Part shown: positions 5,585-25,874 of the stretch, one piece after another | How positions within the stretch are numbered: the stretch's first letter is position 1 | How the letters are laid out: each line of letters starts with the position of its first letter | Virus record (IMG/VR): IMGVR_UViG_3300032214_000986 | Span: 1 to 64,000 of that record | Length of the DNA: 64,000 bases | Direction: 5' to 3' (one strand) | Source of the DNA: a virus | Made by a program: the position numbers and the translations under genes | Notes under the pieces: generated by a model | The model's input: only the letters and a program-made list of their open reading frames with translations | Told to the model about the DNA's origin: nothing | Database searches by the model: none

Positions 5585-6793
5585 ATGAGTAAAATAAGAG
5601 TATTAGTATTACCATCAGATAAGACAGGTGTTGGTAAATTTAGAAGTTTAGACCCACACATTTGTTTACAAAATAACCATTCAGATGAATTTCATGTTGA
5701 TATTGATTATGAACCAAGAGTTAATGATTTAAACTATTGGAAACAGTACGATATCGTTCATTTCCATAGAACAATCGGTCATGAGTATGAAAATTCTGTA
5801 GAATTAATAAAAAAAATTAATTCATTAGGTATTGTAACAATAGCCGACATCGACGACTATTGGTTGCCAACGAAAGAACACCCTGTACATAGTTTAGTAA
5901 TGGAACACCGTTTACATGAAAAAATTATGAACAATTTAAAAGTGGCTCAACATGTGACAACGACAACATCAGTTTTTGCAAAAGAAATATCCAAATTAAA
6001 TAAAAGTGTTCATATATTACCTAACGCGATAAACCCTAACGAACCACAATTTAAATATGAAACGGAACCTTCAGATAAGTTAAGATTTGGATGGTTAGGG
6101 GGGTCATCTCACCTTTACGATTTAAAATTATTAGATGGCACAATAAATAAATTAAAACCACAACAAGATAAATTTGAAATGTATCTATGTGGGTTCGATA
6201 CAAGAGGTACCGTTACTGAAATTAATCAGCAAACTAGAGAACAAAAACAAAGACCTATCACACCACAAGAGACTGTTTGGGCAAGGTATGAAGAAATTTT
6301 TACAAATAATTATTCTTTTGTTGACGACCAACACAAAGAATATTTAATGAGATTTGAGGATGTTCCATATGATGGTAAAACATTCTATAATAGAATTTGG
6401 ACAAAACCTGTGACTTCTTACGCATCTAATTATAGGTTATTTGACGTATCTTTAGCACCTATCAAAAATCACATTTTTAATAGAGTTAAGTCACAACTTA
6501 AAGTTATTGAGGCTGGGTTCTATAAAAAGGCAATTATCGCATCAAACATAGGTCCATATACAATAGATTTAAAACACGCACTTAAAAATGGTGAATTTAC
6601 TGATGGTAACGCACTTTTGGTTGATGAGGTTAGGAATCATAGTGATTGGTCAAAATACATGAAAAAATTAATTGATAACCCTAATTGGGCTTACGATTTA
6701 GGTCAAAGGTTATATGAAACCGTAAAAGACACTTACGACTTAAATAAAGTCACAAGAGATAGGGCGGAATTATATAAATCATTAATTAAATAA
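5585..6793 (+). CDS. Glycosyltransferase, GT-B/GT4-like
   Basis: DIDDYW, FGWLGGSSH and FDVSLAP...FNRVKSQLKVIEAG...IIAS motifs. Confidence 0.8.
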   Translation: MSKIRVLVLPSDKTGVGKFRSLDPHICLQNNHSDEFHVDIDYEPRVNDLNYWKQYDIVHFHRTIGHEYENSVELIKKINSLGIVTIADIDDYWLPTKEHPVHSLVMEHRLHEKIMNNLKVAQHVTTTTSVFAKEISKLNKSVHILPNAINPNEPQFKYETEPSDKLRFGWLGGSSHLYDLKLLDGTINKLKPQQDKFEMYLCGFDTRGTVTEINQQTREQKQRPITPQETVWARYEEIFTNNYSFVDDQHKEYLMRFEDVPYDGKTFYNRIWTKPVTSYASNYRLFDVSLAPIKNHIFNRVKSQLKVIEAGFYKKAIIASNIGPYTIDLKHALKNGEFTDGNALLVDEVRNHSDWSKYMKKLIDNPNWAYDLGQRLYETVKDTYDLNKVTRDRAELYKSLIK

Positions 6794-6795
6794 TT

Positions 6796-7251
6796 ATGGA
6801 CCAAAAAAAAGGAAAAATAGGATTCACCGCAGGTAATTTTGATTTACTCCATCCAGGATATATCTATACGTTCGAAACTGCTAAAGAAAATTGTGATTAT
6901 TTTATAGTATTCCTACAAAGAGACCCATCAGAGACAAGGTTTACTAAATATAAACCAGTCGTTCCTTTATATGAAAGATATAAAACATTGATGTCTATTA
7001 AATACGTAGATGAAGTTATTTGTTATGACGATGAAGAAGACTTACTTAGGTTAATAGAATTTTATAAACCTGATTTAAGAATTTTAGGTGATGATTATAT
7101 CGGTAAAAGATTTACAGGAGACCACCTCTCAATTGAAGTTCTTTACACGACAAGGTCACATAATTGGTCAACAACAAAAATAAAAGACCTAATAACAATA
7201 CAAACTTTAAAACAAAATCCAGAAATAATTAAAAAATTAAAAGATGATTAA
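6796..7251 (+). CDS. Cytidylyltransferase (TagD/RfaE-like)
   Basis: GNFDLLHPGY (HxGH-like), ER...L..IKYVDEV, SHNWSTT. Confidence 0.8.
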   Translation: MDQKKGKIGFTAGNFDLLHPGYIYTFETAKENCDYFIVFLQRDPSETRFTKYKPVVPLYERYKTLMSIKYVDEVICYDDEEDLLRLIEFYKPDLRILGDDYIGKRFTGDHLSIEVLYTTRSHNWSTTKIKDLITIQTLKQNPEIIKKLKDD

Positions 7252-7972
7252 TATACCTATAACAAAAATTTTATTTTTAGACATTGAAACCGTTGGTTTA
7301 TGTCGTAATTGGGAGGGGTGTAAAGAAAACCACCCTAATATTGCCGAACAATTTGTAAAATATTATGATTGGTTTTTAAAACGATTTCCTGAAGATAATG
7401 TGGAAGTAAGTGGTTTAGAAGAAGAACTACAAAAGATGAATGACGTTTATGAGAAAAGATCAGCACTTGTTCCTGAATTTGCAAAGATTGTTTGTGTGTC
7501 TATGGCATTCGTAACTAACGAAGGTATTAAACAACAAACGTTTTCCAATCACGATGAAAAACAATTGTTAATTGATGTTAGAAACTTATTGGACCGTTGT
7601 CATAAATTAGATTTTTATCTTTGTGGTCACAACCTTAAAAACTTCGATATCCCGATGTTAGCCAAACGAATGATTATCAATGGGATTATGCCATCAAAAA
7701 TGCTACCTTCATATGATACAAAACCTTGGGAAGTTAGAGCTATTGATACGAAGGAAATTTGGCAATATGGGTCATACACATCAATTGGTTCATTAGATTT
7801 GGTTTGTTCTACTATGGGTATCGAAACACCAAAGGATGGTCCTATCCACGGAGGAAATGTACATGAAGTATATTGGAACAATCAAAGTAGATTAAATGAA
7901 ATATCAGAATACTGTGAAAAGGATGTTAAAGTGTTGGTTGATTTTATAACAAAATTAAAAGAATTGAAATAA
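7244..7972 (+). CDS. DEDD 3'-5' exonuclease (PolB-exonuclease-like)
   Basis: LFLDIET, GHNLKNFDIP and YCEKDV correspond to ExoI/II/III. Confidence 0.85.
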   Translation: MINIPITKILFLDIETVGLCRNWEGCKENHPNIAEQFVKYYDWFLKRFPEDNVEVSGLEEELQKMNDVYEKRSALVPEFAKIVCVSMAFVTNEGIKQQTFSNHDEKQLLIDVRNLLDRCHKLDFYLCGHNLKNFDIPMLAKRMIINGIMPSKMLPSYDTKPWEVRAIDTKEIWQYGSYTSIGSLDLVCSTMGIETPKDGPIHGGNVHEVYWNNQSRLNEISEYCEKDVKVLVDFITKLKELK

Positions 7973-8571
7973 TGTTTGAGAGATTAAAAGAAATGAAAGA
8001 AGGTATGAAAATGGTTAAAGACCTTCAATCAAAATTCGGAAATTTAAATATGGAAAACCCAGAAGAAATGTTAAAATCTATGGGTATCACATCGGAAGAC
8101 TTAGAGTCTCATTTTACGGAGGCTATGATTAATAAAGTTCAGATGAAATACACTAACGATAGTGATAATAAAGAACCTGAATATGCTTATCAATCTGATT
8201 CTGGTTTCGATTTAAGATCGGTGGAAGACATTTGGGTTCAGGCAAATGATAGAAAATTAATACCAACAGGTTTAAGATTTGATATTCCTGATGGTTTTGA
8301 AATACAAGTAAGGTCTAAAAGTGGTTTAGCCCTAAATCAAGGTTTAATGGTTTTAAATTCGCCAGGTACTGTGGATAGTGGTTACCAAGGTGAGATTAAA
8401 GTAATAATGTTTAATACTACAAATCAAAAAATAAAAATAGAAAAGGGTCAAAAAATTGCACAAGCGGTTGTGTGTCCCGTAGTAAATGGAAGATGGATAG
8501 ATTTAATAAAAGTAGAACAACTTTCAGAAAAAGACAGAAACGATAAAGGATTTGGGAGTACAGGACTATGA
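7972..8571 (+). CDS. dut: dUTPase (trimeric) with N-terminal extension
   Basis: SGFDL, RSKSGLA, GTVDSGYQGEIKV, R...GFGSTG. Confidence 0.95.
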   Translation: MFERLKEMKEGMKMVKDLQSKFGNLNMENPEEMLKSMGITSEDLESHFTEAMINKVQMKYTNDSDNKEPEYAYQSDSGFDLRSVEDIWVQANDRKLIPTGLRFDIPDGFEIQVRSKSGLALNQGLMVLNSPGTVDSGYQGEIKVIMFNTTNQKIKIEKGQKIAQAVVCPVVNGRWIDLIKVEQLSEKDRNDKGFGSTGL

Positions 8572-9662
8572 TAACTATTGGATTTTCCACAAGAAATATT
8601 GATAAGTCTTTTATTGAGATGTTAAAGAAAACCTCCGGTGTTAGTAATACGGAGGTTATTCCTATTGAAAATAATGGGGAATATTCTTTAACTGAGGCGT
8701 ATAATAAGATACTTTCACAATCTAAAAATGATATTGTCATATTATGCCACGATGACATTTACTTCGATAGTAAAAATTGGGGTCAAAAAATCTTAAAGCA
8801 TTTTAAAAGAAATAATGATTATGGAATTTTAGGTGTTGCTGGCTCAGTTAGTTTACCAAAATCGGCAAAATGGTGGGAAGATTTCTCTAAGATGAGAGGA
8901 ATTGTAAACCACGAACATGAAGGCAAAAAGTGGGAGTCCAAGTATTCACCAAGTTTGGGGAATCAAATTGATGATGTGGTCTTAGTTGATGGTCTTTTTA
9001 TAGGGTTAAATAAAAATAACATTAAAAATAATTTTAACCCAGATGTAAAAGGATTCCATTTTTACGATGTCGATTTTTCTTTTAGAAATTATATCGAGGG
9101 AGTAAATATAGGGGTGATTTATGATGTTAGAATAACACATAAATCAATAGGTCAAACAAATGACCAATGGGAAAAGAATAGAGAACTGTTTGCCGAAAAC
9201 AATAAAAATCTATTACCAATTAAAATTAAAAAAGAGGTAAATAAAAACTCAAACTTAAAAATTTTAGTTTTCGAGAATGATTTTTATAAATGTGAGAATT
9301 TACTATCAACCCTAAAAAAAATAAAATTCACCCCATCTTTTTGTGGTATGATATACGATGAAAAGATAATTAAAAAATTAAAACTTAATAATGTAAAAAG
9401 TTTTAATATTAATGAACCTTGTGGATATAAACTTGGTGATGGGAAGTGGGGATTTAATAGTCCTAATGGATTTGTTCCTGCAGAGGCAAATAAATTATAT
9501 AAAATATCTGAAGTTAATTTTGATATCGTCCATGTTATGGATGACAACATATTACCAATTGTTAAATCACTTTACCCTAACTCCGATATTTTTTTACAAA
9601 ATAAATCATATAACTCGGAAGACGAATTAATAAACGATTATAATAATTTTTTAAATGGTTAA
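8568..9662 (+). CDS. Glycosyltransferase (GT2-like, Glyco_tranf_2_5 type)
   Basis: SLTEAYN, LCHDDI, GILGVAG, VDGLF, GFHFYDVDFS. Confidence 0.8.
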   Translation: MITIGFSTRNIDKSFIEMLKKTSGVSNTEVIPIENNGEYSLTEAYNKILSQSKNDIVILCHDDIYFDSKNWGQKILKHFKRNNDYGILGVAGSVSLPKSAKWWEDFSKMRGIVNHEHEGKKWESKYSPSLGNQIDDVVLVDGLFIGLNKNNIKNNFNPDVKGFHFYDVDFSFRNYIEGVNIGVIYDVRITHKSIGQTNDQWEKNRELFAENNKNLLPIKIKKEVNKNSNLKILVFENDFYKCENLLSTLKKIKFTPSFCGMIYDEKIIKKLKLNNVKSFNINEPCGYKLGDGKWGFNSPNGFVPAEANKLYKISEVNFDIVHVMDDNILPIVKSLYPNSDIFLQNKSYNSEDELINDYNNFLNG

Positions 9663-10446
9663 AATATTATCAGGATGGAGTAATAAAGGGGGGTCTACTT
9701 TCGCCTTTATAAATTTAACAAACGAATTAAACAAAAACGGAATAGATGCCACATTCTATGGTCCTCACAATTGGCATTTAGATAAATGTAAATCAGGATT
9801 ATTGGATAATACTTTTACACTCGATAAGGAAGATACAATAATTGTACATTTTTTAAATTTAGGTGTTAGACCTGACGTAAAAAGAGTTATCCTATCTTGC
9901 CATGAAAAGAATTTATTTGAGGTCGGAGATATGAAACCTTTTTGGGACGAAGCGGTCTTTATCAATAATAAACATAGAAACTATCATGAGAGATATACAG
10001 GACCATTTAACATTATTCCTAATTTAAGGGAACCATTAGTTAAAAATGAAAAGAGTGAAGATGTTATTGGCGTTGCAGGAGTTGTGGGTTCGATAGATGA
10101 AAATAAACAAACCCATATCTCAATTCAAAGAGCATTAAGTGATGGTAACAAAAAAGTCTATCTTTTTGGTAATGTTACAGACACCAATTACTATAACACA
10201 CAAGTCAAACCATTAATTGACGGAGATATTGTTGTTGAATATGGTTACGTATCCGACAAACAAAAAATGTACGATATGGTTAGTTCAGTTTATCTTTCGT
10301 CTAAAAGTGAAGTGGCATCCTTAGTTAAGGATGAATGTGAAAGTACCGGTACAAATTTTAAAGGTAATTATGCAACAAATAATGACTCTGAATTTTTAAC
10401 AAATGAAGAAATCATTAATAAATGGAAAAACATTTTAAAACTATGA
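9655..10446 (+). CDS. Glycosyltransferase, GT-B-like
   Basis: GGST N-terminal motif, VGSIDENKQ, YLSSKSE...V..E donor-binding pattern. Confidence 0.65.
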   Translation: MVKILSGWSNKGGSTFAFINLTNELNKNGIDATFYGPHNWHLDKCKSGLLDNTFTLDKEDTIIVHFLNLGVRPDVKRVILSCHEKNLFEVGDMKPFWDEAVFINNKHRNYHERYTGPFNIIPNLREPLVKNEKSEDVIGVAGVVGSIDENKQTHISIQRALSDGNKKVYLFGNVTDTNYYNTQVKPLIDGDIVVEYGYVSDKQKMYDMVSSVYLSSKSEVASLVKDECESTGTNFKGNYATNNDSEFLTNEEIINKWKNILKL

Positions 10447-11156
10447 TAATCGTCACTACATTATATAATGCGGAAAATTATGTTGAAAGATGTATTGGTT
10501 CATTAATGGGTCAAACATATAAAGATTTCACATGTTACATCACAGATGATTTGTCGACAGACAGAAGTGTTGATTTGGTTAAAAAAATGATATTAGGTGA
10601 CAATAGATTTATTTTAATTGAGAATCAAATTAAAATGTACCAACCCGGAAATTACGACCAGGTCATACGTAATAACCCAAATATTGGGGATAGCGAGATT
10701 ATCGTTGAGGTTGATGGTGATGATTGGTTACCTGATTCAAACACCCTTAAAAGAATACATAATACGTATGAGGATGAGAATGTTTGGATAGCGAACGGTA
10801 GTTTTAAATACTCTACAGGGGCCATGGGATTTTCTTCTAAACAAACAAATTTTGAAAATTTAAGGAACTCCAGATTTACGGCATCCCATATTAGGACTTG
10901 GAGGGCGTTTTTATGGAGAAAAATAAAAGAGGAAGATTTAAAGGATGAAAATGGAACGTATTGGAAAGTAACGGGAGATTTATCGTTTATGTTCCCAATG
11001 TTAGAAATGGCCGGTGAAAAAAGATACAAATTTATGGAAGATGTGAACTATGTTTATAACGAATTAAACCCAATCAATGACCATAAAGTGGATTTAACAT
11101 TAGTTAATGTTGTTGCCGACAAAATTAGAAAAATGAAACCGTACGAGATATTATGA
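10443..11156 (+). CDS. Glycosyltransferase family 2
   Basis: LYNAENYVERCI.S, TDDLSTD, VDGDDW. Start moved to ATG 10443 (ATGA overlap with upstream stop). Confidence 0.85.
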   Translation: MIIVTTLYNAENYVERCIGSLMGQTYKDFTCYITDDLSTDRSVDLVKKMILGDNRFILIENQIKMYQPGNYDQVIRNNPNIGDSEIIVEVDGDDWLPDSNTLKRIHNTYEDENVWIANGSFKYSTGAMGFSSKQTNFENLRNSRFTASHIRTWRAFLWRKIKEEDLKDENGTYWKVTGDLSFMFPMLEMAGEKRYKFMEDVNYVYNELNPINDHKVDLTLVNVVADKIRKMKPYEIL

Positions 11157-11932
11157 TAAGTTGTTTTTTACAGGGAGGATTAGGTAACCAATTATTTCAA
11201 ATATCAGCAACAGTATCACTATCATTAAAGAATAATATTACGTATGGTATTAATATGGATTTATGTCATACCCCAAACCAAGGGTTTACTGCGAACAAAT
11301 ACAATGAAACATTATTTAAAAACATAAATAAAATAGGTAACTACCCTTTTAAATTTATATATGACGAACCTAAATTTAGTTTCACCGAAATCCCTTTCAA
11401 AGACGAAATGATAATTAGAGGTTATTTTCAAAGTGAAAAATATTTTTTAGAAAACAAAAAAGAAATAATAGATTTATTCCACATACCTGAAGAATCAAAA
11501 ACAAAAGTTTTAGATTTTTTTAAACAAAAAAAAGTTTCAGGGACAACGACATGTGTACATGTAAGAAGAGGTGATTATTTAAAATTTGACGATTTTCATT
11601 CAGTATGTAATGAAAATTATTATAACCAAGCAATAGATTTAATCGGAGACTCAACATTTATATTTATTTCGGATGATATGGAATGGGTTAATAAAACCTT
11701 TAATTCTGAAAATTTTATAATGTCAGAATTTAATAATGAGATTGACGATTTTACGCTAATGACTATGTGTGATAATGTGATAACATCAAATAGTTCGTTT
11801 AGTTGGTGGGGTTCTTACCTAAATAAAAATAATAATAAAAAGGTGATAACACCAAACAGATGGTTTGGTCCTTCAGGTCATAAAGATATTGAAGATGTAT
11901 ATCCTAAAGATTGGATCAGACTTGATTTTTAA
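11153..11932 (+). CDS. Alpha-1,2-fucosyltransferase-like (GT11)
   Basis: GGLGNQLFQ, GYFQSEKYF, HVRRGDY, NSSFSWWG. Confidence 0.9.
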   Translation: MISCFLQGGLGNQLFQISATVSLSLKNNITYGINMDLCHTPNQGFTANKYNETLFKNINKIGNYPFKFIYDEPKFSFTEIPFKDEMIIRGYFQSEKYFLENKKEIIDLFHIPEESKTKVLDFFKQKKVSGTTTCVHVRRGDYLKFDDFHSVCNENYYNQAIDLIGDSTFIFISDDMEWVNKTFNSENFIMSEFNNEIDDFTLMTMCDNVITSNSSFSWWGSYLNKNNNKKVITPNRWFGPSGHKDIEDVYPKDWIRLDF

Positions 11933-11967
11933 TTAACCAATAACTATTTTTTTCTAAAAAAGATATT

Positions 11968-13269
11968 ATGAAAGAAATAGAAGAAATATTTTCAGACTTA
12001 ACTAATTACCTAAAAGAAAAAAAACCAAAATACCTTTACAATAAATCATTTGTTCCTGGTAAAAGTCAGGTTTTATATTCAGGACCTTATTGGGATGAAG
12101 AAGAGATAATGGCAGCAATCAAAACATTTATCACAGGTAAGTGGGTAGTTGCGGGTGAAAACGTACATAAGTTTGAAAGTGAGTTTTCTAAACTATTCGG
12201 AGTTAAATATGCACATATGGTTAACTCAGGTAGTTCCGCCAATTTAGTATTAATTGCCGCTTTAAAAAAGTTTTTTGGGTGGAATGATGGTGATGAAGTT
12301 ATAGTTTCCCCTGTTGGTTTCCCGACAACTATTTCAGTTTTAGTTCAAAATAATTTAAAACCTGTATTCATTGATATCGAATATGATACATTAAATTTTG
12401 ATGTCACAAAAATAGAAGAGAAAATAACACCTAAAACTAAAGCAATTTTTGTTTCTCCTGTATTAGGTAACGCCCCCGATATGGATTATTTAAAAAATCT
12501 TTGCGATAAATACAATCTAAAATTAGTTGGTGATAGTTGTGACTCTATTGGTTCTAAATGGGACGGAAAACATCTAAGCTCTTATTATGTTGCATGGTCT
12601 ACATCATTCTATCCCGCACACCACATATCAACAGGTGAAGGTGGTATGGTTTGTACTGATATTGCAGAATTAAAAAAACTATTTGTGAGTTTTTCATGGT
12701 GGGGTAGAGATTGTCATTGCGTTGGTTCAGCAAATCTACTTTCATGTGGGACTTGTGGTAACAGATTCGATAAATGGTTGGAGTCTTATGATGGAATTAT
12801 AGACCATAAATACGTCTTTACTAATATGGGATATAACCTTAAACCTATGGATTTACAAGGTTCGATTGGGTTAGTTCAAATTAAAAGATTCGAGGAAATA
12901 GATTTAAATAGAAAAAACAGTAAAAAAAATATTGAGTCAATCTTACTAAAACACGTAGAAGGTTTAAAAGGTGTTGGTTCATTAAGTAAGTCCGACCCGT
13001 GTTGGTTTGGTACACCTTTCATATGTGAATCAAAAACGTTAAAAGATAAATTAGTTTCGTTTTTAGAAGAAAACAAAATACAAACTAGAAATTATTTTGC
13101 TGGAAATATATTGTTACATCCGGCTTATTCACATTTGGATGAGGTAGAATTATACCCTAACTCAAACCAAGTATTAGATAAAGTTTTCTTTTTGGGGGCA
13201 TCTCCACATTACACTGATGAGGTTTTTAATTATATTAATTCCGTGTTTGAAAATAAATGGAAAAATTAA
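11968..13269 (+). CDS. rfbH: RfbH/DdhC-like NDP-4-keto-6-deoxyhexose 3-dehydratase (DegT family)
   Basis: VNSGSSANL; TSFYPAHHISTGEGG (His in place of the PLP Lys); WGRDCHC...CGTCG Fe-S-type cysteines; DHKY...GYNLK. Confidence 0.85.
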   Translation: MKEIEEIFSDLTNYLKEKKPKYLYNKSFVPGKSQVLYSGPYWDEEEIMAAIKTFITGKWVVAGENVHKFESEFSKLFGVKYAHMVNSGSSANLVLIAALKKFFGWNDGDEVIVSPVGFPTTISVLVQNNLKPVFIDIEYDTLNFDVTKIEEKITPKTKAIFVSPVLGNAPDMDYLKNLCDKYNLKLVGDSCDSIGSKWDGKHLSSYYVAWSTSFYPAHHISTGEGGMVCTDIAELKKLFVSFSWWGRDCHCVGSANLLSCGTCGNRFDKWLESYDGIIDHKYVFTNMGYNLKPMDLQGSIGLVQIKRFEEIDLNRKNSKKNIESILLKHVEGLKGVGSLSKSDPCWFGTPFICESKTLKDKLVSFLEENKIQTRNYFAGNILLHPAYSHLDEVELYPNSNQVLDKVFFLGASPHYTDEVFNYINSVFENKWKN

Positions 13270-13278
13270 TCGGAAAAA

Positions 13279-16778: not shown

Positions 16779-16785
16779 AAAAAAT

Positions 16786-17418
16786 ATGAATTATTTAGGT
16801 GATTTGTCTAAACAAGACTACGAAGTATTAAAAGATTTATCGTTAAATTCTAAAAATATATTAGAATTTGGCATTGGGGGTAGTACACAAATACTACGAA
16901 ATTTTAGTGATGGTAATCTAACGTCAGTTGAAACCTCCCAATTTTGGATAGACATAACAAAAAGAAATTTACAATTTTTGAAAATTGAGAAGGATGTTAC
17001 TTTTTTATTATATGATGAGTTTAACCCAAAAGTAGAACAATATGATTTAATTTTTAACGATGGGATTGATTCACTAAGAAACGAATTTGGGATTAAATTT
17101 TGGCAAAACTTAAAAGTGGGTGGTACAATTGCGTATCACGACACCAGAAGAATACAAGATATTCAAAACGTCATTAACTTAGTTAATAATTTTAAAGACG
17201 AAGTTGAATCAATTATTTTTAATAAGGACAACTCTAATATAACACTAATTAAGAAGAAAAATAAAGATGGTGTTATTTTTAATAATACCATCGATGTAAA
17301 TAAAATTTTATCAGAATCTCCATATTACGATTGGAATGATTCTGAAATGAAAATTAGGTTAAAATACGGAATCTCAGTAAATAAAGGAAACGACATACCT
17401 GATTATTTAATTGATTAA
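16786..17418 (+). CDS. Class I SAM-dependent methyltransferase
   Basis: ILEFGIGGST, YDLIFNDG, LKVGGTIAYHD. Start moved to ATG 16786. Confidence 0.8.
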   Translation: MNYLGDLSKQDYEVLKDLSLNSKNILEFGIGGSTQILRNFSDGNLTSVETSQFWIDITKRNLQFLKIEKDVTFLLYDEFNPKVEQYDLIFNDGIDSLRNEFGIKFWQNLKVGGTIAYHDTRRIQDIQNVINLVNNFKDEVESIIFNKDNSNITLIKKKNKDGVIFNNTIDVNKILSESPYYDWNDSEMKIRLKYGISVNKGNDIPDYLID

Positions 17419-17421
17419 TAT

Positions 17422-18324: not shown

Positions 18325-18327
18325 AAC

Positions 18328-19251
18328 ATGAAATTATTAGAGTATGAAGAATTACAAAGAATGGTTGACTATTCATTTGGAGACCATTCGGGAGTTTTAG
18401 GAAAGTGTCCTAATGCGTATATGAAAAAGGCTAACATTAATAATATAGAATTTATTGATAAGTTAAAAAACCATAAAAGTGACATTATGACGCTTTTTAT
18501 TGATAATATAAGATTATATAGAAGACAAATTGATTATTGTGATTGGGAAAAATTAAAACCTATTAGTCAAAATGATAGGGATTGGTTAAATCAATTCAAT
18601 GATGAGGATTTATTAGAATTATGTTCTAATTTTCCTGAAAAAAAATTTATAATTTTTACGGCATTTGAAGACACTCCTTTAGATGAATTTATTGAGGGTA
18701 AAATCCCTGATAACGTTATTTCCATTAATGCAACAAATGCGGTTTATTTAAATAAAAAAATTAACCCGATGCCCCACGGAATTGAACGAAAAATGCACAT
18801 GGGTTATAACCATCACGAAATTTTAATAAATAATATAAAAAATAATACTCCCGCCCAAAAATTATTATACGTAAATCATAGAGAAGATACGGGGACAAGA
18901 AAAAGTTTAAGAGAAATGTTTAGTGGATGGGCGACAATATCCCCTAAAGTTGATTACTCAACGTTTTTAACAGGAATTAGAGAACATAAATTTGTTCTTT
19001 GCCCTAGTGGTAATGGGATTGGGTCTGCCAGAAATTGGGAGACACTTTATTTAAAAAGAGTACCCGTATTAGAATGGCACCCATATAAAGAAAAAGTTTT
19101 TAAAGGGTTTCCAGTATTATTTGTAAATAATTATTCAGAAATCACAAAAGAATTATTAGAAAATAATATTCATTTATATGAGGAGGCTCAGAATATTAAT
19201 ATGGATAAATTAGATTTAGAAATTATCTTTAATGAAAGAACAAAAATATGA
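18328..19251 (+). CDS. Exostosin/GT47-like glycosyltransferase
   Basis: KFVLCPSGNG....R.WE.LY...VPV C-terminal motif. Confidence 0.7.
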   Translation: MKLLEYEELQRMVDYSFGDHSGVLGKCPNAYMKKANINNIEFIDKLKNHKSDIMTLFIDNIRLYRRQIDYCDWEKLKPISQNDRDWLNQFNDEDLLELCSNFPEKKFIIFTAFEDTPLDEFIEGKIPDNVISINATNAVYLNKKINPMPHGIERKMHMGYNHHEILINNIKNNTPAQKLLYVNHREDTGTRKSLREMFSGWATISPKVDYSTFLTGIREHKFVLCPSGNGIGSARNWETLYLKRVPVLEWHPYKEKVFKGFPVLFVNNYSEITKELLENNIHLYEEAQNINMDKLDLEIIFNERTKI

Positions 19252-19994
19252 TATACGATTGCTTTACATTTTTTAATGAATTAGATTTATTAGAAATAAG
19301 ATTAAATATACTTGACGAATATACTGATTATTTTGTTATTGGAGAATCATATGAAACATTTAGCGGATTAAAAAAACCTCTTTATTATTATGAAAATAGA
19401 GAAAGATTTGAAAAGTGGAATGACAAAATTATCCATATAATTCATCCTGATTTTGAAACTAAAAATTCATTTGAAAGAGCTAGCTTTCAAAAAGAAAATC
19501 TAAAATTGGGTTTAAAAAATGCATCAGACGAGGATATTATTTATTTTGGGGATACTGATGAAATTTGGAAACCAAAAGTTATTGATGATAAAGTTTATAA
19601 CCTAAAACAAAAAAATTATTCATATTATTTAAATAATCGTTCAAGCGAACAATGGGTTGGTACTATTGTTTCAAAATATAAAAATATTAAAAACGGTAGT
19701 TTAAATTATTTTAGAGCTAACCATACTAATGAATTGGATGATGGTGGGTGGCATTTCACAAATATGGGAGGATATGAACAAGTAATAAAAAAACTTGAAT
19801 CTTATGACCACCAAGAATTTAATAACGACTACATAAAATCTCAAATAAAACATAAAATTGACAATAATTTAGATTACGTAGGTAGAAGATTTGACTGGTT
19901 AGGAAACCCATTTCAATTTAAAATTGACGAATCGGGACTCCCTGAATTTATATTAAATAATAAATTAAGATATAAACACATGATAAAATCATAA
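19248..19994 (+). CDS. GT17-like glycosyltransferase
   Basis: IYDCFTFFNELDLLEIRL, ES..TFSG..KPL, DTDEI, GGWHFT. Confidence 0.85.
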   Translation: MIYDCFTFFNELDLLEIRLNILDEYTDYFVIGESYETFSGLKKPLYYYENRERFEKWNDKIIHIIHPDFETKNSFERASFQKENLKLGLKNASDEDIIYFGDTDEIWKPKVIDDKVYNLKQKNYSYYLNNRSSEQWVGTIVSKYKNIKNGSLNYFRANHTNELDDGGWHFTNMGGYEQVIKKLESYDHQEFNNDYIKSQIKHKIDNNLDYVGRRFDWLGNPFQFKIDESGLPEFILNNKLRYKHMIKS

Positions 19995-20971
19995 TGAAAA
20001 GGGCTTTAATTACAGGAATTAATGGTCAAGATGGATCATATCTTGCTGAATTACTTTTAGAAAAAGGTTATGAGGTGTGGGGAACAGTAAAAAGAAATTC
20101 TGTTTCTGAAACACAGTCTTCAAGAATTGAAAACCTAAGGGACAGTAATTTAATTCATCTTGAGTATGCAGATTTAACTGATATGTCATCTTTAGTAAGA
20201 GTACTTTCAATATCCCAACCAGATGAGGTTTATAATTTAGCTGCCCAATCACATGTTAGAATTAGTTTTGACCAACCGGTATATACGGCAAATGTTACAG
20301 GTGTCGGTACATTAAATCTATTAGAGTCTGTAAGATTAGTTTCACCACATTCAAAAATTTACCAAGCATCTTCTTCTGAAATGTTCGGGAACACAATCGA
20401 TGAAGATGGATATCAAAGAGAAACAACCCCAATGAATCCGGTATCACCATACGGTTGTGCAAAGGTATTTTCATATAATATTTGTAGGAACTACAGAAAT
20501 TCATACGGAATGAAAATTTGGAATGGTATCCTATTCAACCACGAATCACCAAGAAGAGGAACTAATTTTGTCACGAATAAAGTTGTTAAAGCTGCAGTCA
20601 GAATAAGTTTAGGTTTACAGGATAAATTGCACATAGGTAATTTGTCAGCAACAAGAGATTGGGGACATGCAAAAGATTACGTTTATGCTATGTGGTTAAT
20701 GTTACAATCCGACAAACCGGAAGATTATGTATGTTCAACCGGGGTCTCACATTCAGTACAAGATTTATGTAGTTATGTGTTTAGTTCATTGGGTTTAGAT
20801 TATCAAAAATACATTGTTGTCGATGAAAAACATTTTAGACCTGAAGAACTTGAGAATCTGAAAGGGGACTCATCAAAATTGAGAAAAGAATTGATGTGGC
20901 AACCCGAATATACATTCGAAAGTATGTTAGATGAAATGATAAATTATTGGTTAGAATATTATGGAAAATAA
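19994..20971 (+). CDS. gmd: GDP-mannose 4,6-dehydratase
   Basis: ALITGINGQDGSYLAE, NLAAQSHV, YQASSSEMFG, SPYGCAK, FNHESPRRG, RDWGHAKDYV. Confidence 0.97.
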   Translation: MKRALITGINGQDGSYLAELLLEKGYEVWGTVKRNSVSETQSSRIENLRDSNLIHLEYADLTDMSSLVRVLSISQPDEVYNLAAQSHVRISFDQPVYTANVTGVGTLNLLESVRLVSPHSKIYQASSSEMFGNTIDEDGYQRETTPMNPVSPYGCAKVFSYNICRNYRNSYGMKIWNGILFNHESPRRGTNFVTNKVVKAAVRISLGLQDKLHIGNLSATRDWGHAKDYVYAMWLMLQSDKPEDYVCSTGVSHSVQDLCSYVFSSLGLDYQKYIVVDEKHFRPEELENLKGDSSKLRKELMWQPEYTFESMLDEMINYWLEYYGK

Positions 20972-21878
20972 TATATTAGTTACCGGTGGTAATGGGTTAG
21001 TTGGTTCTGAATTCGTGGGGGACCATTATTTTAAACCTTCGTCAAAGGTTTACGATTTACGTAGAACGGAAGACACGAATAGATTGATGTTAAAGGGTTT
21101 TGATAGTATCATACATTGTGCAGCTAAAGTTGGTGGTGTAGGAGGTAACATGAACTTTAAGGGTGATTTTTTTTATGATAACATTATGATGAATACTAAT
21201 ATCATCGAAGGTGCCAGAATGTCGGGGGTAAAAAATTTAGTGGCATTTTTATCCACCTGTGTTTTTCCCGATAACGTAGAATACCCATTAACAGAATCAA
21301 AAATACATTTAGGCCCACCACACACATCAAATGATGCATATGCATATGCGAAAAGAATGACAGACATACAAATAAGAGCATATAGAGAACAATACGGTTT
21401 AAACTATAAGTCAGTAATACCTTGTAACATTTATGGTCCTAACGACAACTATGACATCGTAAATGGTCATGTTCTACCGTCTCTAATACATAAATGTTAT
21501 TTAGCAAGGGAGAATAAAACCCCTTTGTCAATTTGGGGGTCAGGAAAACCATTAAGAGAATTTATCTTTAGTAAAGATGTTGCTAAATTAACAGAATGGG
21601 TTCTCCATAATTATAATGAAAATGAACCAATTATATTATCCACATCTGAAGAAATTTCAATTATGGATATGGTTGACATAATTGTTGAGTTGATGAACTT
21701 TAAGGGGAATGTCATATTCGATTCGTCTAAACCTGACGGGCAATTTAGAAAACCATCGGATAATTCCAAAATAAAACATTATTTACCGGATTTTAAATTC
21801 ACACCAATATATGAAGGTTTGAAAGAAACTATTGAGTATTTTGAAAATCATTATAATGTTATAAGAAAAAATGGATAA
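20961..21878 (+). CDS. fcl: GDP-L-fucose synthase
   Basis: TGGNGLVG, AAKVGG, STCVFP, YAYAKR, NIYGPNDN, WGSGKPLREF; adjacent to gmd. Confidence 0.95.
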   Translation: MENNILVTGGNGLVGSEFVGDHYFKPSSKVYDLRRTEDTNRLMLKGFDSIIHCAAKVGGVGGNMNFKGDFFYDNIMMNTNIIEGARMSGVKNLVAFLSTCVFPDNVEYPLTESKIHLGPPHTSNDAYAYAKRMTDIQIRAYREQYGLNYKSVIPCNIYGPNDNYDIVNGHVLPSLIHKCYLARENKTPLSIWGSGKPLREFIFSKDVAKLTEWVLHNYNENEPIILSTSEEISIMDMVDIIVELMNFKGNVIFDSSKPDGQFRKPSDNSKIKHYLPDFKFTPIYEGLKETIEYFENHYNVIRKNG

Positions 21879-22317
21879 ACAAAAAAGAACTATAGGTATT
21901 ACTTGCTCGACTTTTGATCTTTTACACGCAGGCCACATTATAATGTTAGAAGAGTGTAAAAAATATTGCGATTACCTAATTTGTGGGCTTCAGGTGGACC
22001 CAACCATCGATAGACCTGAAAAAAATAAACCAATTCAAACTTTAGTAGAAAGATATATACAACTTGATTCCGTAGAATATGTGGATAAAATCATTCCTTA
22101 TTGTACTGAAGAGGAGTTGATTACAATTTTTTCTTCTTTGGATTTAGATGTAAGAATAATAGGTGAGGAGTATAAGGATAGTAACTTCACAGGAAAAGAT
22201 GTTTGTTTGAAAAGAAATATCAAATTAATTTATAATAAAAGAGACCACGACTTTTCAACAACCAGTTTAAGACAAAGGATTTACACACAAGAATCCAATA
22301 AAAGATTTGTAAAATAA
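21871..22317 (+). CDS. Glycerol-3-phosphate cytidylyltransferase-like
   Basis: TFDLLHAGH, YLICGLQ.DP, R.HDFSTT.LR. Confidence 0.85.
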   Translation: MDKQKRTIGITCSTFDLLHAGHIIMLEECKKYCDYLICGLQVDPTIDRPEKNKPIQTLVERYIQLDSVEYVDKIIPYCTEEELITIFSSLDLDVRIIGEEYKDSNFTGKDVCLKRNIKLIYNKRDHDFSTTSLRQRIYTQESNKRFVK

Positions 22318-22320: not shown

Positions 22321-23064
22321 ATGACGACAAGAAGAAAGACAACCACAGTGCAGGAAGACCAGTCAGCACCAAAAACATTTTCAAAAAAAGACTTAATTAA
22401 CTCGGTAATAAAGAAAAAACAAAAGAGCAAATTTTTGTCAGACAACCAAAAAGAATATTATGATATGTTGATTGATAATCAAATAACCATATGTTCAGGA
22501 CCGGCGGGTGTAGGTAAGAGTTATATTTCGATGAAAGCTGCGGTGGACTTACTAATGGACCCTAATAATGCGTATGAGAAAATTATTATTGTTAGACCTG
22601 CTGTTGAAGCTGAAGAAAAATTAGGTTCTTTACCAGGAAACTTAGAGGAAAAATTAGACCCATATATTTTCCCATCGTATTATCTACTAAATAAAATTAT
22701 AGGTAAAGACGCTAGAGAAAAATTAAAAAGTCACGAAATTATAGAAGTTTTCGCATTGGCCTATATGAGGGGTATGAATATCGATAATTCAATACTAATA
22801 TTTGAAGAAGCACAAAATGCAACACCTAATCAAATGAAATTACTATTGACAAGGATAGGGTTTAATAGTAAATTCTTTATATCGGGAGATTTAGAACAAA
22901 CTGACAGATATAAAGATAAAAAACATTCAGGTTTATACGACGCATTACAAAGATTTAACGGGATATCCGATATTGGTGTTTATGATTTTAAAAACGCCAA
23001 AAACGTTAGAAACCCATTAATCAGTAAAATTTTAGTGAAATACGATGAAGAGAATAGGGATTGA
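22321..23064 (+). CDS. phoH: PhoH-family ATPase
   Basis: GPAGVGKS, RPAVEAEEKLGSLPG, YMRG, EEAQN, LLTRIG, GDLEQTD, VRNPLI. Confidence 0.95.
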   Translation: MTTRRKTTTVQEDQSAPKTFSKKDLINSVIKKKQKSKFLSDNQKEYYDMLIDNQITICSGPAGVGKSYISMKAAVDLLMDPNNAYEKIIIVRPAVEAEEKLGSLPGNLEEKLDPYIFPSYYLLNKIIGKDAREKLKSHEIIEVFALAYMRGMNIDNSILIFEEAQNATPNQMKLLLTRIGFNSKFFISGDLEQTDRYKDKKHSGLYDALQRFNGISDIGVYDFKNAKNVRNPLISKILVKYDEENRD

Positions 23065-23701
23065 GATTAACGGAGTTTTAAGGGATACCATAGGTAAGTT
23101 CACTCAAATTTATGAACACAATATGTTGAGTGATGATGAAACTGATTCCGTAGATAAAACTTATGAACTTAAGTTTTCAGGTGGTCCTGAAGATATTACA
23201 GAAAATACCGAGATTAATAATTTTAAATATGAATTATTAAGTGAGGTTGAGTCTTTAAATCTTAGGTCTCATTTCGCATTCAAAGACGAAGATGAGTTAT
23301 ATTCTTTTATGTATGAGGATTTCGTAATGCAGATATTTGGACATGCTGGATCAACCGAAACTTTTACTTTTAACGATTTAAATGAGATATATTTAAATCA
23401 TAGAGACAATAAAGAATTATTAATAGTTTCTGATGAAATTGGTAAATCTAAACCGGCATCATTATTCTTTTTATCAAAATTTGGTTGTCTATTAGAGAAA
23501 GTAAAATTTTATTCAAACACTACAATTAATACACTATGGGATGAGGTGGATGTGTTATTAACGGCCAATCCTGATTTAATCATTAATCACCCAAAAGATA
23601 AAGTTGTCGTAAAATTTTTAACGGCATATAATAAAAATGTTGATTCTGAATATGAAATTAAATCATTAAAAGAATTTGACGAAATAATAGAAAAATTATG
23701 A
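23045..23701 (+). CDS. HAD-like (5'-nucleotidase-type) protein, catalytic motif degenerate
   Basis: RIGIEINGVLRD resembles I.iD.DGVL.D; C-terminal AYNK. Confidence 0.5.
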   Translation: MKRIGIEINGVLRDTIGKFTQIYEHNMLSDDETDSVDKTYELKFSGGPEDITENTEINNFKYELLSEVESLNLRSHFAFKDEDELYSFMYEDFVMQIFGHAGSTETFTFNDLNEIYLNHRDNKELLIVSDEIGKSKPASLFFLSKFGCLLEKVKFYSNTTINTLWDEVDVLLTANPDLIINHPKDKVVVKFLTAYNKNVDSEYEIKSLKEFDEIIEKL

Positions 23702-23988
23702 GTTTGTTAAAATTTTTAGGAGAAAATTATTACATAGACGTTGATGAGTTAGAGGAACAAGTGAGTATGTTTAACTCAAAATTACCTCTTATTTCGGGGG
23801 AAACCGAAAACGAACAACAAATTAGTGTGACGAGATATGAAACGTTTAAAAATCTAATCGAAGTCATATTAACAGAAAGGGAAGAACTAGATGATACTTT
23901 AGGGATACACGGAGCAAAAGATTTATCAATACCGTTTAAAATATCATTTAATACACTATTAATAAATAAAATAATAAAAACACTTTAA
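23698..23988 (+). CDS. Hypothetical phage protein
   Basis: 96 aa ORF with ATGA coupling. Confidence 0.65.
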   Translation: MSLLKFLGENYYIDVDELEEQVSMFNSKLPLISGETENEQQISVTRYETFKNLIEVILTEREELDDTLGIHGAKDLSIPFKISFNTLLINKIIKTL

Positions 23989-23989
23989 A

Positions 23990-25054
23990 ATGGAGTTAGA
24001 AAAAATTCAAAAGATTGAGTCTTCGGTGGAAACCTTAAGATCAAAAAAATCCAGGATTTATTTTTTGGTACAAGACACAAAAGGTAACCCTAAAGCGTCT
24101 GTTAGACATATCTATGACATCGCATTAACGTTATTTAATAATGGGTTTAACCCAACAATTATTCACGAAACCAATGATTATAAAGGAGTATCAGAATGGT
24201 TAGGTGACCAATATGAGGTATTACCTCACCAATCAATCGATGGTCAAAATTTAGCAATATCCCCTGAAGATTTTATTATTATTCCGGAGATTTATGCACA
24301 TGTAATGGAACAAATTAAAAATTTCCCTTGTGCTAAAATAGTACTTTGTCAAGCATATGACCACATGTTAGAGACTTTACCTCCTGGTGTTAGTTGGTCA
24401 CAGTATGGGTTTACTAAATGTATAACTACTTCAGAATTTCAAAAGAAATATGTTTCAGAAATTATGAGAAGTGGTTCATTCGACGTATTGTTACCTAATA
24501 TCCCAACCACCTTTACTAAGAAAGATAAACCATCTAAACCTATTATTGCTATTCACACTAGAGACCCTAGAGACACCGCAAAAGTAATTAAAAGTTTTTA
24601 TTTAAAATACCCACAATTTAGATGGATTACTTTTAGAGATATGAGAGGTATTAAACAAGATGACTTCGCTAAATTTTTAAGTGAATCGTTTGTTTCAGTT
24701 TGGGTTGACATTGAGTCTGGTTTCGGTACATTCCCGATTGAATCTATGATTTGTGGTACACCGGTTATTGGAAAGATTCCTAATCTAAAACCAGAGTGGA
24801 TGCAAGAATCAAATGGTTTGTGGATTAACCAAACTAACGAGTTGATTGATGTCATTGCCAATTTTACTCAAAATTGGTTGGAGGATAATATCGCAGACTC
24901 ATTATATGAGAATATGGATATTACAGGTAAAGAATACCAAAACGAAGAAAACTTCAGAAATTCTGTACTTAATTTGTTTAACGAATATTTTGACACAAGA
25001 AGACAAACATTTGAAGACCAATTAGAAAAAATAAAAGAATCAGTAGAAAAATAA
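23990..25054 (+). CDS. Glycosyltransferase, GT-B-like
   Basis: DFIIIPE and ESGFGTFPIESMICGTPVIG. Confidence 0.8.
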   Translation: MELEKIQKIESSVETLRSKKSRIYFLVQDTKGNPKASVRHIYDIALTLFNNGFNPTIIHETNDYKGVSEWLGDQYEVLPHQSIDGQNLAISPEDFIIIPEIYAHVMEQIKNFPCAKIVLCQAYDHMLETLPPGVSWSQYGFTKCITTSEFQKKYVSEIMRSGSFDVLLPNIPTTFTKKDKPSKPIIAIHTRDPRDTAKVIKSFYLKYPQFRWITFRDMRGIKQDDFAKFLSESFVSVWVDIESGFGTFPIESMICGTPVIGKIPNLKPEWMQESNGLWINQTNELIDVIANFTQNWLEDNIADSLYENMDITGKEYQNEENFRNSVLNLFNEYFDTRRQTFEDQLEKIKESVEK

Positions 25055-25061
25055 TATTATT

Positions 25062-25874
25062 ATGGAAGTAAAAAACAATTTTAACGTATCTGTGATTTTA
25101 CCTTTAAGTTCATCACTTGTAAAATCATTTGAAGATTTATTAGAAAAAGCAATTAAATCTTTAGAAAACCAAGTAATTGGTATAAATGAACTTGTCATTG
25201 TACATTCAAAAGAGGAGTCATTAAAAAACTCATTATCTAAGATTAATTTTGGGGAATTAAATGTAAAGATGGTGGAAAACGAAGGTTCTACCGATTTCGC
25301 ATCTCAAGTTAATTTAGGAGTTAAAGAAGCGAGTAGTAAGTGGATTTCTATTTTAGAATTCGATGATGAATACGCATCTATATGGTTCAAAAATGTTGAC
25401 CGTTTTGTTAAGGCATATTCTGATGTTGATGCTTTTTTACCTTTAGTTGTTGACATTGACGATAAGGGAGTATTTGCAGGATTCACCAATGAAGCAACTT
25501 TCGCTGTTAGTTTAAACTCTGAGATGGGTTATTTAACTAACGATGTTTTACAGGCTTACCAAAATTTCCAATCAAGTGGGATGGTAATTAAAAAAGACAC
25601 ATTTTTAGAAAATGGAGGATTAAAACCGTCCATTAAACTAACATTTGTTTATGAGATGTTTTTAAGACTTACGTATAATTCCGTAAAAATTATGACAATC
25701 CCAAGAATTGGTTACAAACACATGAACATGAGAGAAGGTTCTATTTTTTGGAATTACAAATTTGGTGAAGAAAAATTAGGAGATAAGGAAGTTTTATTTT
25801 GGCTGGAGTCCGCAAAAAAAGAACATTTCTTTACTTCTGACAGAGACATAAAATTTGTACCAGAAACTATTTAA
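25062..25874 (+). CDS. Glycosyltransferase family 2-like
   Basis: VSVILP, NLGV....SKWISILEFDD, F...GG. Confidence 0.75.
   Translation: MEVKNNFNVSVILPLSSSLVKSFEDLLEKAIKSLENQVIGINELVIVHSKEESLKNSLSKINFGELNVKMVENEGSTDFASQVNLGVKEASSKWISILEFDDEYASIWFKNVDRFVKAYSDVDAFLPLVVDIDDKGVFAGFTNEATFAVSLNSEMGYLTNDVLQAYQNFQSSGMVIKKDTFLENGGLKPSIKLTFVYEMFLRLTYNSVKIMTIPRIGYKHMNMREGSIFWNYKFGEEKLGDKEVLFWLESAKKEHFFTSDRDIKFVPETI

Follow-up and report, generated by a model that had tools for sequence, protein, structure and literature searches.

What would a phage build with a dense array of glycan-assembly genes if no machinery for polymerizing or exporting a glycan lies beside it? This question is raised by the IMG/VR virus record IMGVR_UViG_3300032214_000986, a contig of 120,084 bp (33% GC, no terminal repeat), the first 64,000 nucleotides of which form the window analysed here; window and contig positions coincide. 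CheckV rated the contig as 40% complete, placing the genome probably near 300 kb, and the source is a large uncultured phage with T4-type core genes. An original prediction, made from the sequence of the window alone, had held that the glycan specified by a 20-kb island of this window is built stepwise in the cytoplasm on a soluble acceptor (a virion protein, or possibly DNA). The reading preferred here is that the island provides the sugars and assembles the chains in a phage-encoded system that glycosylates virion surface proteins entirely within the cytoplasm; its chances appear to be evenly balanced. The gene content, the missing lipid-carrier and export families, the variability of the cassette and the pairing of a TibC/Aah-type enzyme with fibre genes are direct observations, whereas the acceptor of the island glycan, the kinds of sugar produced and the stage at which the genes are expressed are those that we infer from the genes and signals described below.

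The island (5585-26617) is a single, tightly packed array of 26 genes on the + strand, in which 16 of the 25 junctions are overlaps and the other nine are gaps of 1-35 nt; the predicted dense array of glycan genes is, thus, confirmed. Profile searches with Pfam, NCBIfam and PHROGs identified at least eight well-supported glycosyltransferase genes, together with gmd, an fcl-like gene, a gene for an E1/RfbH-type 3-dehydrase and two small nucleotidyltransferase genes (Table 1), and the transferase genes of the island number at least 11 in all. The genes listed in the original prediction were recovered for GT2, GT11 (two copies), GT17, DUF5672, gmd, the fcl-like and RfbH-like enzymes, the RmlD-GT2 fusion and the two cytidylyltransferase-like proteins, but its GT47-like gene (18328, E 0.01) and its methyltransferase gene (16744 only, a PHROG match at E 7e-4) fell short of the usual thresholds. 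The list also lacked four genes of the array, those for a PolB-exo-like exonuclease (7244), a dUTPase (7972), a DUF3431 protein (15293) and PhoH (22321). The late sigma gene said to close the array is correctly placed, but its identity is weakly supported (Sigma70_r2 at E 0.005, below the cut-off; no match in a PDB sequence search). The island is not an artefact of mis-assembly, and the concern that it might be misplaced host sequence can be set aside: its GC content is even throughout (0.27-0.34) and its backbone genes recur in 80 viral contigs.

A Kyte-Doolittle scan of the 132 open reading frames (ORFs) of the contig detected hydrophobic segments in nine of them, never more than three per ORF (the three of ORF 27009-28949 overlap), and no multi-pass membrane protein. 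The statement that the window encodes no such protein is, thus, correct and extends to the whole contig. Relatives were also searched, because the contig is incomplete. Bac_transf (PF02397), Polysacc_synt (PF01943, Wzx), Wzy_C (PF04932), Glycos_transf_4 (PF00953, WecA) and PMT_2 were found in none of the five records of each search, whereas the positive controls were matched in 9-13 of 14 control genomes (10/14 and 12/14 for the initiating transferases, Bac_transf and Glycos_transf_4). Bac_transf was sought in two sets, one comprising the contig and four partial relatives and the other made up of five relatives, among them G005 (304 kb) and G008 (373 kb, with terminal repeats), both rated 100% complete by CheckV; the other four families were sought in the contig, G005, G008 and two partial relatives. 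The export families are, therefore, absent from the contig, two complete relatives and three partial ones, and the check for Wzx, Wzy and WbaP beyond the window that the original prediction had called for revealed none. A Gtr-type conversion set (membrane-anchored GtrB, GtrA flippase and multi-pass transferase) was likewise not found, there being no multi-pass ORF in the contig and no PMT_2 in the five records. The single GtrB-like match (phrog_841, E 2e-10) falls on the GT2 domain of the protein encoded at 62345-64072, which has no hydrophobic segment.

Taken alone, the missing export genes are weak evidence, because soluble transferases can act on host lipid-linked intermediates. This consideration underlies the main rival, the remodelling of host glycans, which seems unlikely on balance. 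According to this model, soluble phage transferases would add fucose and other sugars to undecaprenyl-linked intermediates of the host (for lipopolysaccharide, capsule or the general O-glycosylation glycan of Bacteroidota), and the host initiating transferase, flippase and ligase would complete the process; the altered surface might, for example, block superinfection or the sticking of progeny to debris. O-antigen conversion, as far as it is known, is carried out by temperate phages, whereas neither an integrase gene nor any other lysogeny gene turned up in Pfam scans of the contig, which represents about 40% of the genome, and the lack of a transmembrane segment in the only GtrB-like match also argues against such remodelling.

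Evidence for protein-directed glycosylation comes from outside the island. A second glycan cluster (57070-66194) runs past the end of the window and closes with a gene for a 706-aa protein, the C-terminal half of which matches the TIGR04414 model for TibC/Aah-type O-heptosyltransferases at 275.4 bits (277.5 in the genome search), above the cut-off of 200, and which aligns with TibC (PDB 4rap/4rb4) at E 2e-60. The bacterial autotransporter heptosyltransferases described by this model are characterised by ADP-heptose as donor, a dodecameric ring and the heptosylation of Ser in the substrate. In TibC of Escherichia coli, Asp110 is catalytic, Lys230 binds the sugar and four cysteines form an iron finger (PMC4358343). 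The six residues concerned (D110, K230, C339, C342, C358 and C370) are all identical in the phage protein, and the phage, judging by this alignment, possesses a true member of the TibC/Aah family, an enzyme for the O-glycosylation of proteins in the cytoplasm. Facing this gene are the genes of two giant collagen-like fibres, in which 342 and 383 Gly-X-Y triplets were counted; GSS and GTS predominate among these, and the Ser+Thr content is 48-50%. As in the TibC-TibA and Aah-AIDA-I pairs of E. coli, the enzyme gene adjoins that of its presumed substrate and the key residues are shared, but the substrate in E. coli is a beta-helix adhesin (PMC4358343), whereas the presumed substrate here is a proline-free Gly-Ser/Thr-Ser repeat of the triple-helix type. 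The phage enzyme differs further in being fused to a GT4 domain, and it lies outside the island.

The association between enzyme and fibre is recurrent. A Ser/Thr-rich run of at least 20 triplets was found within 10 kb of the TibC-like gene in 43 of 80 loci from IMG/VR and, after dereplication, in 17/31 clusters at 95% identity and 13/25 clusters at 80% identity, as against 0/80 terminase loci and 0/80 gmd loci, although the force of these controls is limited because they come from close relatives of the phage rather than from random phage DNA. Across five records, collagen repeats were found in G000, G002 and G008, exactly those with a TibC-like gene above the cut-off. Cytoplasmic protein glycosylation is, accordingly, well founded for the fibre module. 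Genes for Pro-Thr-repeat proteins flank the fibre genes on the - strand (66199-66828 and 76082-77179), the first of these proteins having a Cys-rich C-terminal domain. The cultured cyanophage Microcystis phage Mel-JY01 encodes a 1226-aa GT4/TibC-like fusion within its structural module (L005:4750-8430), annotated as 'methyltransferase FkbM', which could serve as an experimental model for phage TibC-like enzymes. The 866-aa fusion protein encoded at the start of the second cluster (in the region 57070-60466, +) matches only the first ~75 profile positions of the DegT aminotransferase family, and the following ORF, which has no family match, overlaps its gene by 80 nt. A frameshift at 59.6 kb joining the DegT-like end to the ORF at 59591-60466 was considered, but tblastn with two DegT proteins found nothing there; this end may be a remnant, the product of a frameshift or a new fold.

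The island varies in gene content between relatives. The gmd gene retrieved 271 relatives from IMG/VR, and the counts given here concern the best 80, which are 75-94% identical. The backbone (gmd, the fcl-like gene, PhoH, two small ORFs, two transferases, the sigma-like gene and the next ORF) is present in 65-80 of these 80 relatives, whereas the genes at 8.5-20 kb are found in only 0-36 of them, mostly at the identity level of paralogues. The exonuclease and dUTPase genes (7244..8571) form the conserved left flank; the dUTPase gene lies 5.2-9.5 kb upstream of gmd in 21 of the 80 loci, as against 11.4 kb here, and beyond the 10-kb flank elsewhere. With these conserved flanks and variable genes, the island is a locus of constant position, the central part of which can be exchanged. 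The scan of cassettes covered 132 ORFs from 14 distinct relatives; a fifteenth locus, L175 (10 ORFs), was dropped as its coordinates duplicate those of L171. In 14/14 cassettes, the glycan genes are headed by one for Glyco_tranf_2_5, which stands alone or is joined to GT2 or GT4, and in 10 of them this is the first ORF after the dUTPase gene. A Pfam family was assigned at E <= 1e-5 to 78 of the 132 ORFs. Glycosyltransferases account for 40 of these 78 and are drawn from a mix that changes from phage to phage (GT2, GT6, GT7C, GT10, GT11, GT25, Fringe/GT31 and GT-D), accompanied by genes for FkbM and other methyltransferases, sulfotransferases, a pyruvyl transferase, acetyltransferases, DegT enzymes and epimerases. 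Such turnover is as expected of an exposed surface under selection. It is also hard to square with the remodelling of a host surface that lasts only until lysis, the cassettes having been exchanged between phages with such similar gmd genes.

The sugars that the island could supply are suggested by its biosynthetic genes. The gmd product matches TIGR01472 at 396 bits (cut-off 415) and, with the fcl-like enzyme, would provide a GDP-6-deoxyhexose, most likely GDP-fucose, although the score of the fcl-like gene (223 bits, cut-off 500) leaves room for another GDP-6-deoxyhexose. The fucose foreseen in the glycan is, accordingly, plausible given these two genes and two GT11 genes, but both biosynthetic genes score below their family cut-offs. 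Chloroviruses encode gmd and a GDP-fucose synthase. The enzyme encoded at 11968 is closer to E1 (3bcx, 278 bits) than to ColD (157 bits) and retains both the active-site His of the 'YPAHH' motif, in the place of the Lys that binds pyridoxal phosphate, and aligned Cys residues at what we take to be the Fe-S ligand positions of E1. The 3,6-dideoxyhexose mooted earlier is, thus, upheld as far as the dehydrase and its His and Cys signatures go, but not by partner enzymes: neither an RfbF-type glucose-1-phosphate cytidylyltransferase, nor a CDP-glucose 4,6-dehydratase (RfbG), nor an E3 reductase was found in Pfam and NCBIfam scans of the ORFs of this incomplete contig. Host enzymes could serve as partners. 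Both nucleotidyltransferases match a PHROG annotated as heptose adenylyltransferase (E 1e-33) and are 30-35% identical to the rfaE-II-like enzyme of G008, and the NCBIfam rfaE-II and TagD models score about equally; through a heptose donor, these two enzymes may connect the island with the fibre module. G008 itself encodes GmhA (239 bits), a heptose-7-phosphate kinase (302 bits) and this rfaE-domain-II-like enzyme (107 bits), which makes heptose a credible donor in these phages, whereas the two ambiguous nucleotidyltransferases are all that was found for heptose supply in the contig itself. The heptose genes of G008, which cover most of the ADP-heptose pathway, are located at three separate places (L248:3187-3786, L249:1628-2596 and L250:86-499).

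In the proposed mechanism, soluble enzymes would make a GDP-6-deoxyhexose (most likely fucose) and a 3-deoxygenated hexose in activated form, and perhaps also a CDP-alcohol or ADP-heptose. The conserved first transferase (Glyco_tranf_2_5), followed by strain-specific GT2, GT11, GT17 and other enzymes, would then extend the glycan sugar by sugar on protein. Separately, the module at 57-66 kb would prime Ser and Thr residues of the two fibres through its GT4-fused O-heptosyltransferase, and its methyl- and acetyltransferases would tailor the product.

Two lineage-specific proteins encoded outside the island, of 492 and 763 aa, are candidate glycan acceptors on the basis of their composition. The motif [ST]-[GA]-x-[ST], often in the form S/T-G-L/Y/F-S/T, is enriched 6-8-fold in them (z 8-10), an enrichment kept in homologues with 71-73% identity that fades in distant ones. 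In the 492-aa protein, the motif-rich stretches are insertions absent from distant homologues, and correspond to loops with a low predicted local distance difference test (pLDDT) score in a weak AlphaFold2 (AF2) model. A tblastn search of GenBank phages with the two proteins found no match, and an ESM Atlas look-up with the 492-aa protein yielded viral clusters only. Pro-Thr linkers occur in three phage proteins. The capsid protein, by contrast with the mycobacteriophage subunits considered below, ends in '...TFDLRELR', with no Ser/Thr tail.

Of 60 upstream regions, 30 contain the heptamer TATTTAT, an approximately 13-fold excess over the background rate, and it lies mostly 7-30 nt before the start codon and in the orientation of the gene; sites in the window include 2953(-), 2966(+), 26630(+), 30724(+), 36945(-), 38004(-), 39493(-) and 57033(-). 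It precedes structural genes, the gene of the 1329-aa fibre, those of the 492-aa and 763-aa proteins and the gene that follows the sigma-like ORF, but no intergenic copy was found inside the island. This suggests that the island lies outside what is presumably the late regulon, which would fit enzymes made ahead of the virion proteins that they modify and would equally fit an early role directed at the host or at DNA. Other promoter patterns were less useful: 24 matches to the T4 late promoter TATAAATA were counted where 16 would be expected, which is uninformative, a Bacteroidota-type -33/-7 pattern gave 6 against 6.6 expected, and a sigma-70 scan gave a count below the shuffle mean. The non-late appearance of the operon and the missing membrane machinery would also be compatible with another soluble acceptor, a host cytoplasmic protein or small molecule modified during host takeover. 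Nothing points specifically to such an acceptor, the phage has abundant Ser/Thr-rich, exposed virion candidates, and we know of no precedent for a strain-variable 20-kb cassette serving a soluble acceptor other than a virion protein, so this explanation appears improbable.

DNA as acceptor, raised as a possibility in the original prediction, found no support, and the glycosylation of a hydroxylated pyrimidine of phage DNA against restriction, as in T4, RB69 and DLP3, is the least probable of the explanations considered here. The island is indeed interleaved with nucleotide-metabolism genes (exonuclease, dUTPase and PhoH), a thymidylate-synthase homologue is present in each of G005, G006 and G008, and T4-like phages can carry several clustered DNA glycosyltransferases together with sugar-nucleotide genes (PMC13326640). 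However, of the two homologues inspected, that of G006 is a canonical ThyA (QRSVDTFLGLPFN) and that of G005, like it, keeps Asp169 and Asn177, whereas D169N is the signature of 5-hydroxy-dCMP synthases and a change at Asn177 has been tied to cytosine specificity (PMC13326640); both match ordinary thymidylate synthases best in the PDB. No thymidylate-synthase homologue was found in the incomplete contig itself. Moreover, at least 11 transferases, with the sulfo- and pyruvyl-transferases of the relatives, far exceed the one to three DNA sugars described in PMC13326640.

Several observations weigh against the view that the island glycan is attached to virion proteins and in some cases favour remodelling of host glycans. 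No analysis links any island enzyme to a protein acceptor. Undecaprenyl-linked intermediates are commonly served by soluble enzymes too, host export would be usable, and only about 40% of the genome is covered by the contig. O-antigen and capsule loci typically contain genes of the GT2, GT11, GT25, DegT, gmd/fcl and RfbH types, and comparable gene clusters of cyanophages have been interpreted in the literature as serving host cell-wall modification (PMC12801897). No intergenic TATTTAT lies within the island, which begins after a terminator-like hairpin and is interleaved with early-type genes (exonuclease, dUTPase and PhoH). Among the clusters with a TibC-like gene, 12/25 have no collagen-like run within 10 kb, and both G005 (complete) and G006 keep the gmd island with no collagen-like gene, the TibC-like score being 120 bits in G005 and no such protein being found in G006. 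The island is, thus, independent of the fibre module in these relatives, and the two systems can be independent of one another. The AF2 model of the Glyco_tranf_2_5 enzyme (8568; pLDDT 77) resembles only generic GT-A folds in Foldseek, the best match being majastridin (template modelling scores 0.46/0.65); polypeptide GalNAc-transferases and collagen glycosyltransferases scored about 0.3-0.4, so that no type of acceptor could be read from the fold. The model of the 492-aa candidate is poor (pLDDT 60.6), Foldseek returning only generic tandem Ig/FN3 matches, with an Ig/FN3-like C-terminal half. Finally, the nucleotidyltransferases score 55-71 bits against TagD and ethanolamine-phosphate cytidylyltransferase in the PDB, as against 28-31 bits for HldC, a ranking that was rejected as a test of substrate because the heptose-linked enzyme of G008 ranks alike.

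Against host remodelling stands the fact that a proven type of protein-directed transferase is encoded in the same genome. The predicted stepwise assembly in the cytoplasm on a soluble acceptor is, therefore, borne out in so far as export families are missing and a TibC/Aah-type enzyme faces the fibres, but not in so far as it would tie an island enzyme to a virion protein, and cytoplasmic protein glycosylation by the island itself is best described as plausible but unproven. As a more tentative extension of virion glycosylation, it is possible that the island is a 'glycotype' locus, a site between the dUTPase gene and gmd at which soluble transferases are swapped in whole sets, together with enzymes for methyl-, sulfo-, pyruvyl-, acetyl- and amino-tailoring, each strain of a widespread lineage of ~300-kb freshwater Bacteroidota phages coating its virion proteins with a different fucose-containing glycan made in the cytoplasm. 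Such a locus would be the bacterial-virus counterpart of the giant-virus glycocalyx and of bacterial O-antigen serotypes.

The proposed system belongs to a known class, virus-encoded virion glycosylation, within which it would stand out as a large system that is abundant in environmental phages and has a hypervariable cassette at a fixed site. In mycobacteriophages (Freeman et al., 2023, Cell Host Microbe, as summarised in PMC12619734), virion proteins are glycosylated in the cytoplasm by soluble enzymes of the phage, which has no export machinery, as is proposed here. However, those systems involve few transferases acting on the C-termini of capsid and tail-tube subunits in siphoviruses of Actinobacteria, whereas the myovirus-type phage of ~300 kb studied here combines 11 or more transferase genes with sugar-nucleotide pathways, has a hypervariable cassette and lacks a Ser/Thr-rich C-terminal capsid tail. 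Chloroviruses and Megavirinae similarly use virus-encoded sugar-nucleotide pathways and clade-specific transferase clusters for decorating capsid proteins or fibrils, but they have eukaryotic hosts and unrelated capsids (PMC10117803; PMC9614988), whereas here the host is bacterial and the variation occurs among close strains at one fixed locus. A parallel in gene content is provided by the T4-like cyanophages P-SSM2, S-SCSM1 and S-SCSM2R, which have clusters of many GT2/GT11-type transferases, epimerases and a TagD-like enzyme, 13 transferases being possibly the highest number in a marine phage (PMC12801897). Their function was only predicted, as modification of the host surface or cell wall or of DNA, and the accessible part of that paper does not discuss a TibC-like enzyme or a collagen-like fibre. 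In a literature that largely excluded subscription journals, no paper was found on phage TibC-like enzymes, glycosylated collagen-like phage fibres or an island of this kind. If lake phages do wear strain-specific glycan coats made by 10-15 enzymes of their own, virion glycosylation would be a major variable trait of large environmental phages and more than a curiosity of mycobacteriophages and giant viruses. Such a coat would have a bearing on how stable the particles are, how they recognize hosts, whether they adhere to mucus or exopolysaccharide, and how grazers or host defences detect them. The locus lends itself to experiment, with its conserved flanks, swappable middle and candidate enzyme-substrate pair (the TibC-like protein and the Gly-Ser/Thr-Ser fibre), and the cassettes are a source of soluble glycosyltransferases from families mostly studied in eukaryotes (GT6, 7, 10, 11, 17 and 31). 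The features concerned are listed in Table 1.

Table 1. Genes and signals of the glycan island, the second glycan cluster and their surroundings (positions beyond 64,000 lie outside the window)
Feature	Position	Strand	Support or remark
763-aa protein with Pro-Thr linker, candidate acceptor	644..2935	-	16 [ST]-[GA]-x-[ST] motifs vs 2.7 expected
Intrinsic-terminator-like hairpin	5520..5542	+	10-bp stem then T run; directly upstream of island; best such hairpin of the region
GT-B-type glycosyltransferase, first gene of array	5585..6793	+	phrog_7162 E 9e-44; Pfam GT1 only E 0.016
Small nucleotidyltransferase (CTP_transf_like)	6796..7251	+	candidate CDP-alcohol type or heptose-1-P adenylyltransferase
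PolB-exo-like 3'-5' exonuclease	starts 7244 (block 7244..8571)	+	Pfam/PHROGs; non-glycan gene
dUTPase	starts 7972 (block 7244..8571)	+	Pfam/PHROGs; non-glycan gene
Glyco_tranf_2_5 GT-A enzyme	8568..9662	+	Pfam
Variable part of cassette	9655..19994	+	genes in only 0-36/80 relatives, mostly at low identity
ORF without family match	starts 9655	+	
GT2	starts 10422	+	Pfam
GT11	starts 11153	+	above cut-off
E1/RfbH-like 3-dehydrase (DegT family)	starts 11968	+	RfbH-type model 363 bits, cut-off 423
RmlD N-half fused to GT2	starts 13279	+	Pfam
DUF5672	starts 14630	+	Pfam
DUF3431	starts 15293	+	Pfam
ORF without family match	starts 15990	+	
ORF without family match except a methyltransferase PHROG	starts 16744	+	E 7e-4
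GT11	starts 17422	+	above cut-off
Weak GT47/RXYLT1-like ORF	starts 18328	+	E 0.01 only
GT17	starts 19248	+	Pfam
gmd	starts 19994 (block 19994..21878)	+	PF16363 E 2e-120; in 80/80 relatives
fcl-like reductase/epimerase	starts 20961 (block 19994..21878)	+	223 bits, cut-off 500; in 72/80 relatives
Second small nucleotidyltransferase (cytidylyltransferase-like)	21871..22317	+	
PhoH	starts 22321 (block 22321..23988)	+	Pfam
Conserved ORFs without family match, 218 and 96 aa	start 23045, 23698 (block 22321..23988)	+	
Conserved backbone transferase, weak GT-B-like, 354 aa	starts 23990 (block 23990..25874)	+	in 71/80 relatives
Conserved backbone transferase, GT2, 270 aa	starts 25062 (block 23990..25874)	+	in 70/80 relatives
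Sigma-like protein, weakly supported, last gene of array	25874..26617	+	Sigma70_r2 E 0.005, below cut-off; in 68/80 relatives
TATTTAT promoter-like motif	26630..26636	+	opens next transcription unit after array
492-aa protein, candidate acceptor	30746..32224	+	13 [ST]-[GA]-x-[ST] motifs vs 1.6 expected
Second glycan cluster	57070-66194	+	runs past window end (64000)
GT4/FkbM methyltransferase/DegT-N fusion, 866 aa	starts 57070	+	first gene of cluster
Further cluster genes, in order		+	ORF without family, methyltransferase, NeuD/PglD-type acetyltransferase, 575-aa GT2 (to 64072), 706-aa protein
GT4 + TibC/Aah-type O-heptosyltransferase, 706 aa	64074-66194	+	just beyond window
Collagen-like fibre genes, 1329 and 1713 aa	66830-70819, 70925-76066	-	facing TibC-like gene

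The wider gene content of the contig gives some indication of the lineage and host of the phage. Profile searches located the T4-type major capsid protein, portal, prohead protease and large terminase at 33-43 kb, and the closest GenBank phages by capsid protein (37-46% identity) are Flavobacterium phage immuto, Microcystis phage Mel-JY01, Rhodothermus phage RM378 and uncultured huge phages. The host probably belongs to Bacteroidota, because phage proteins carry a CHU_C sorting domain of type IX secretion (91192-93423, -, together with a PKD domain) and an SprB repeat (113254-114249, -), both features resembling those of Bacteroidota hosts. The 'moraphages', freshwater jumbo phages of Bacteroidota with genomes of 200-307 kb, are similar in size range, in type of habitat and in the phylum predicted for the host, and also in having chaperone genes and four core orthogroups of glycosyltransferases; their transferases are named in passing in the accessible part of the paper, which describes no island, cassette or acceptor (PMC12619734). 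The phage studied here may belong to the same lineage or to one close to it.

Some further observations concern the virion and its assembly. The gp23-type major capsid protein (33481-35307, -) is 608 aa long, and its Pfam match spans residues 342-595 only, leaving ~340 additional N-terminal residues with Ser/Thr/Gly-rich stretches outside the match. Next to the second glycan cluster, two paralogous virion-type proteins (53298-54986 and 55241-57013, both -) contain ConA-like lectin (Laminin_G_3) domains, one of them with a fibrinogen C-terminal-like domain as well; they are possible glycan-binding receptor proteins, to judge from these domains. A chaperone and protease set (47043-50182, +; 100981-101433, +; 102396-103229, -) comprises a ClpB/Hsp100-type double AAA protein, an M42/M20-like peptidase, an FKBP-type isomerase and a DnaJ-type zinc-finger protein.

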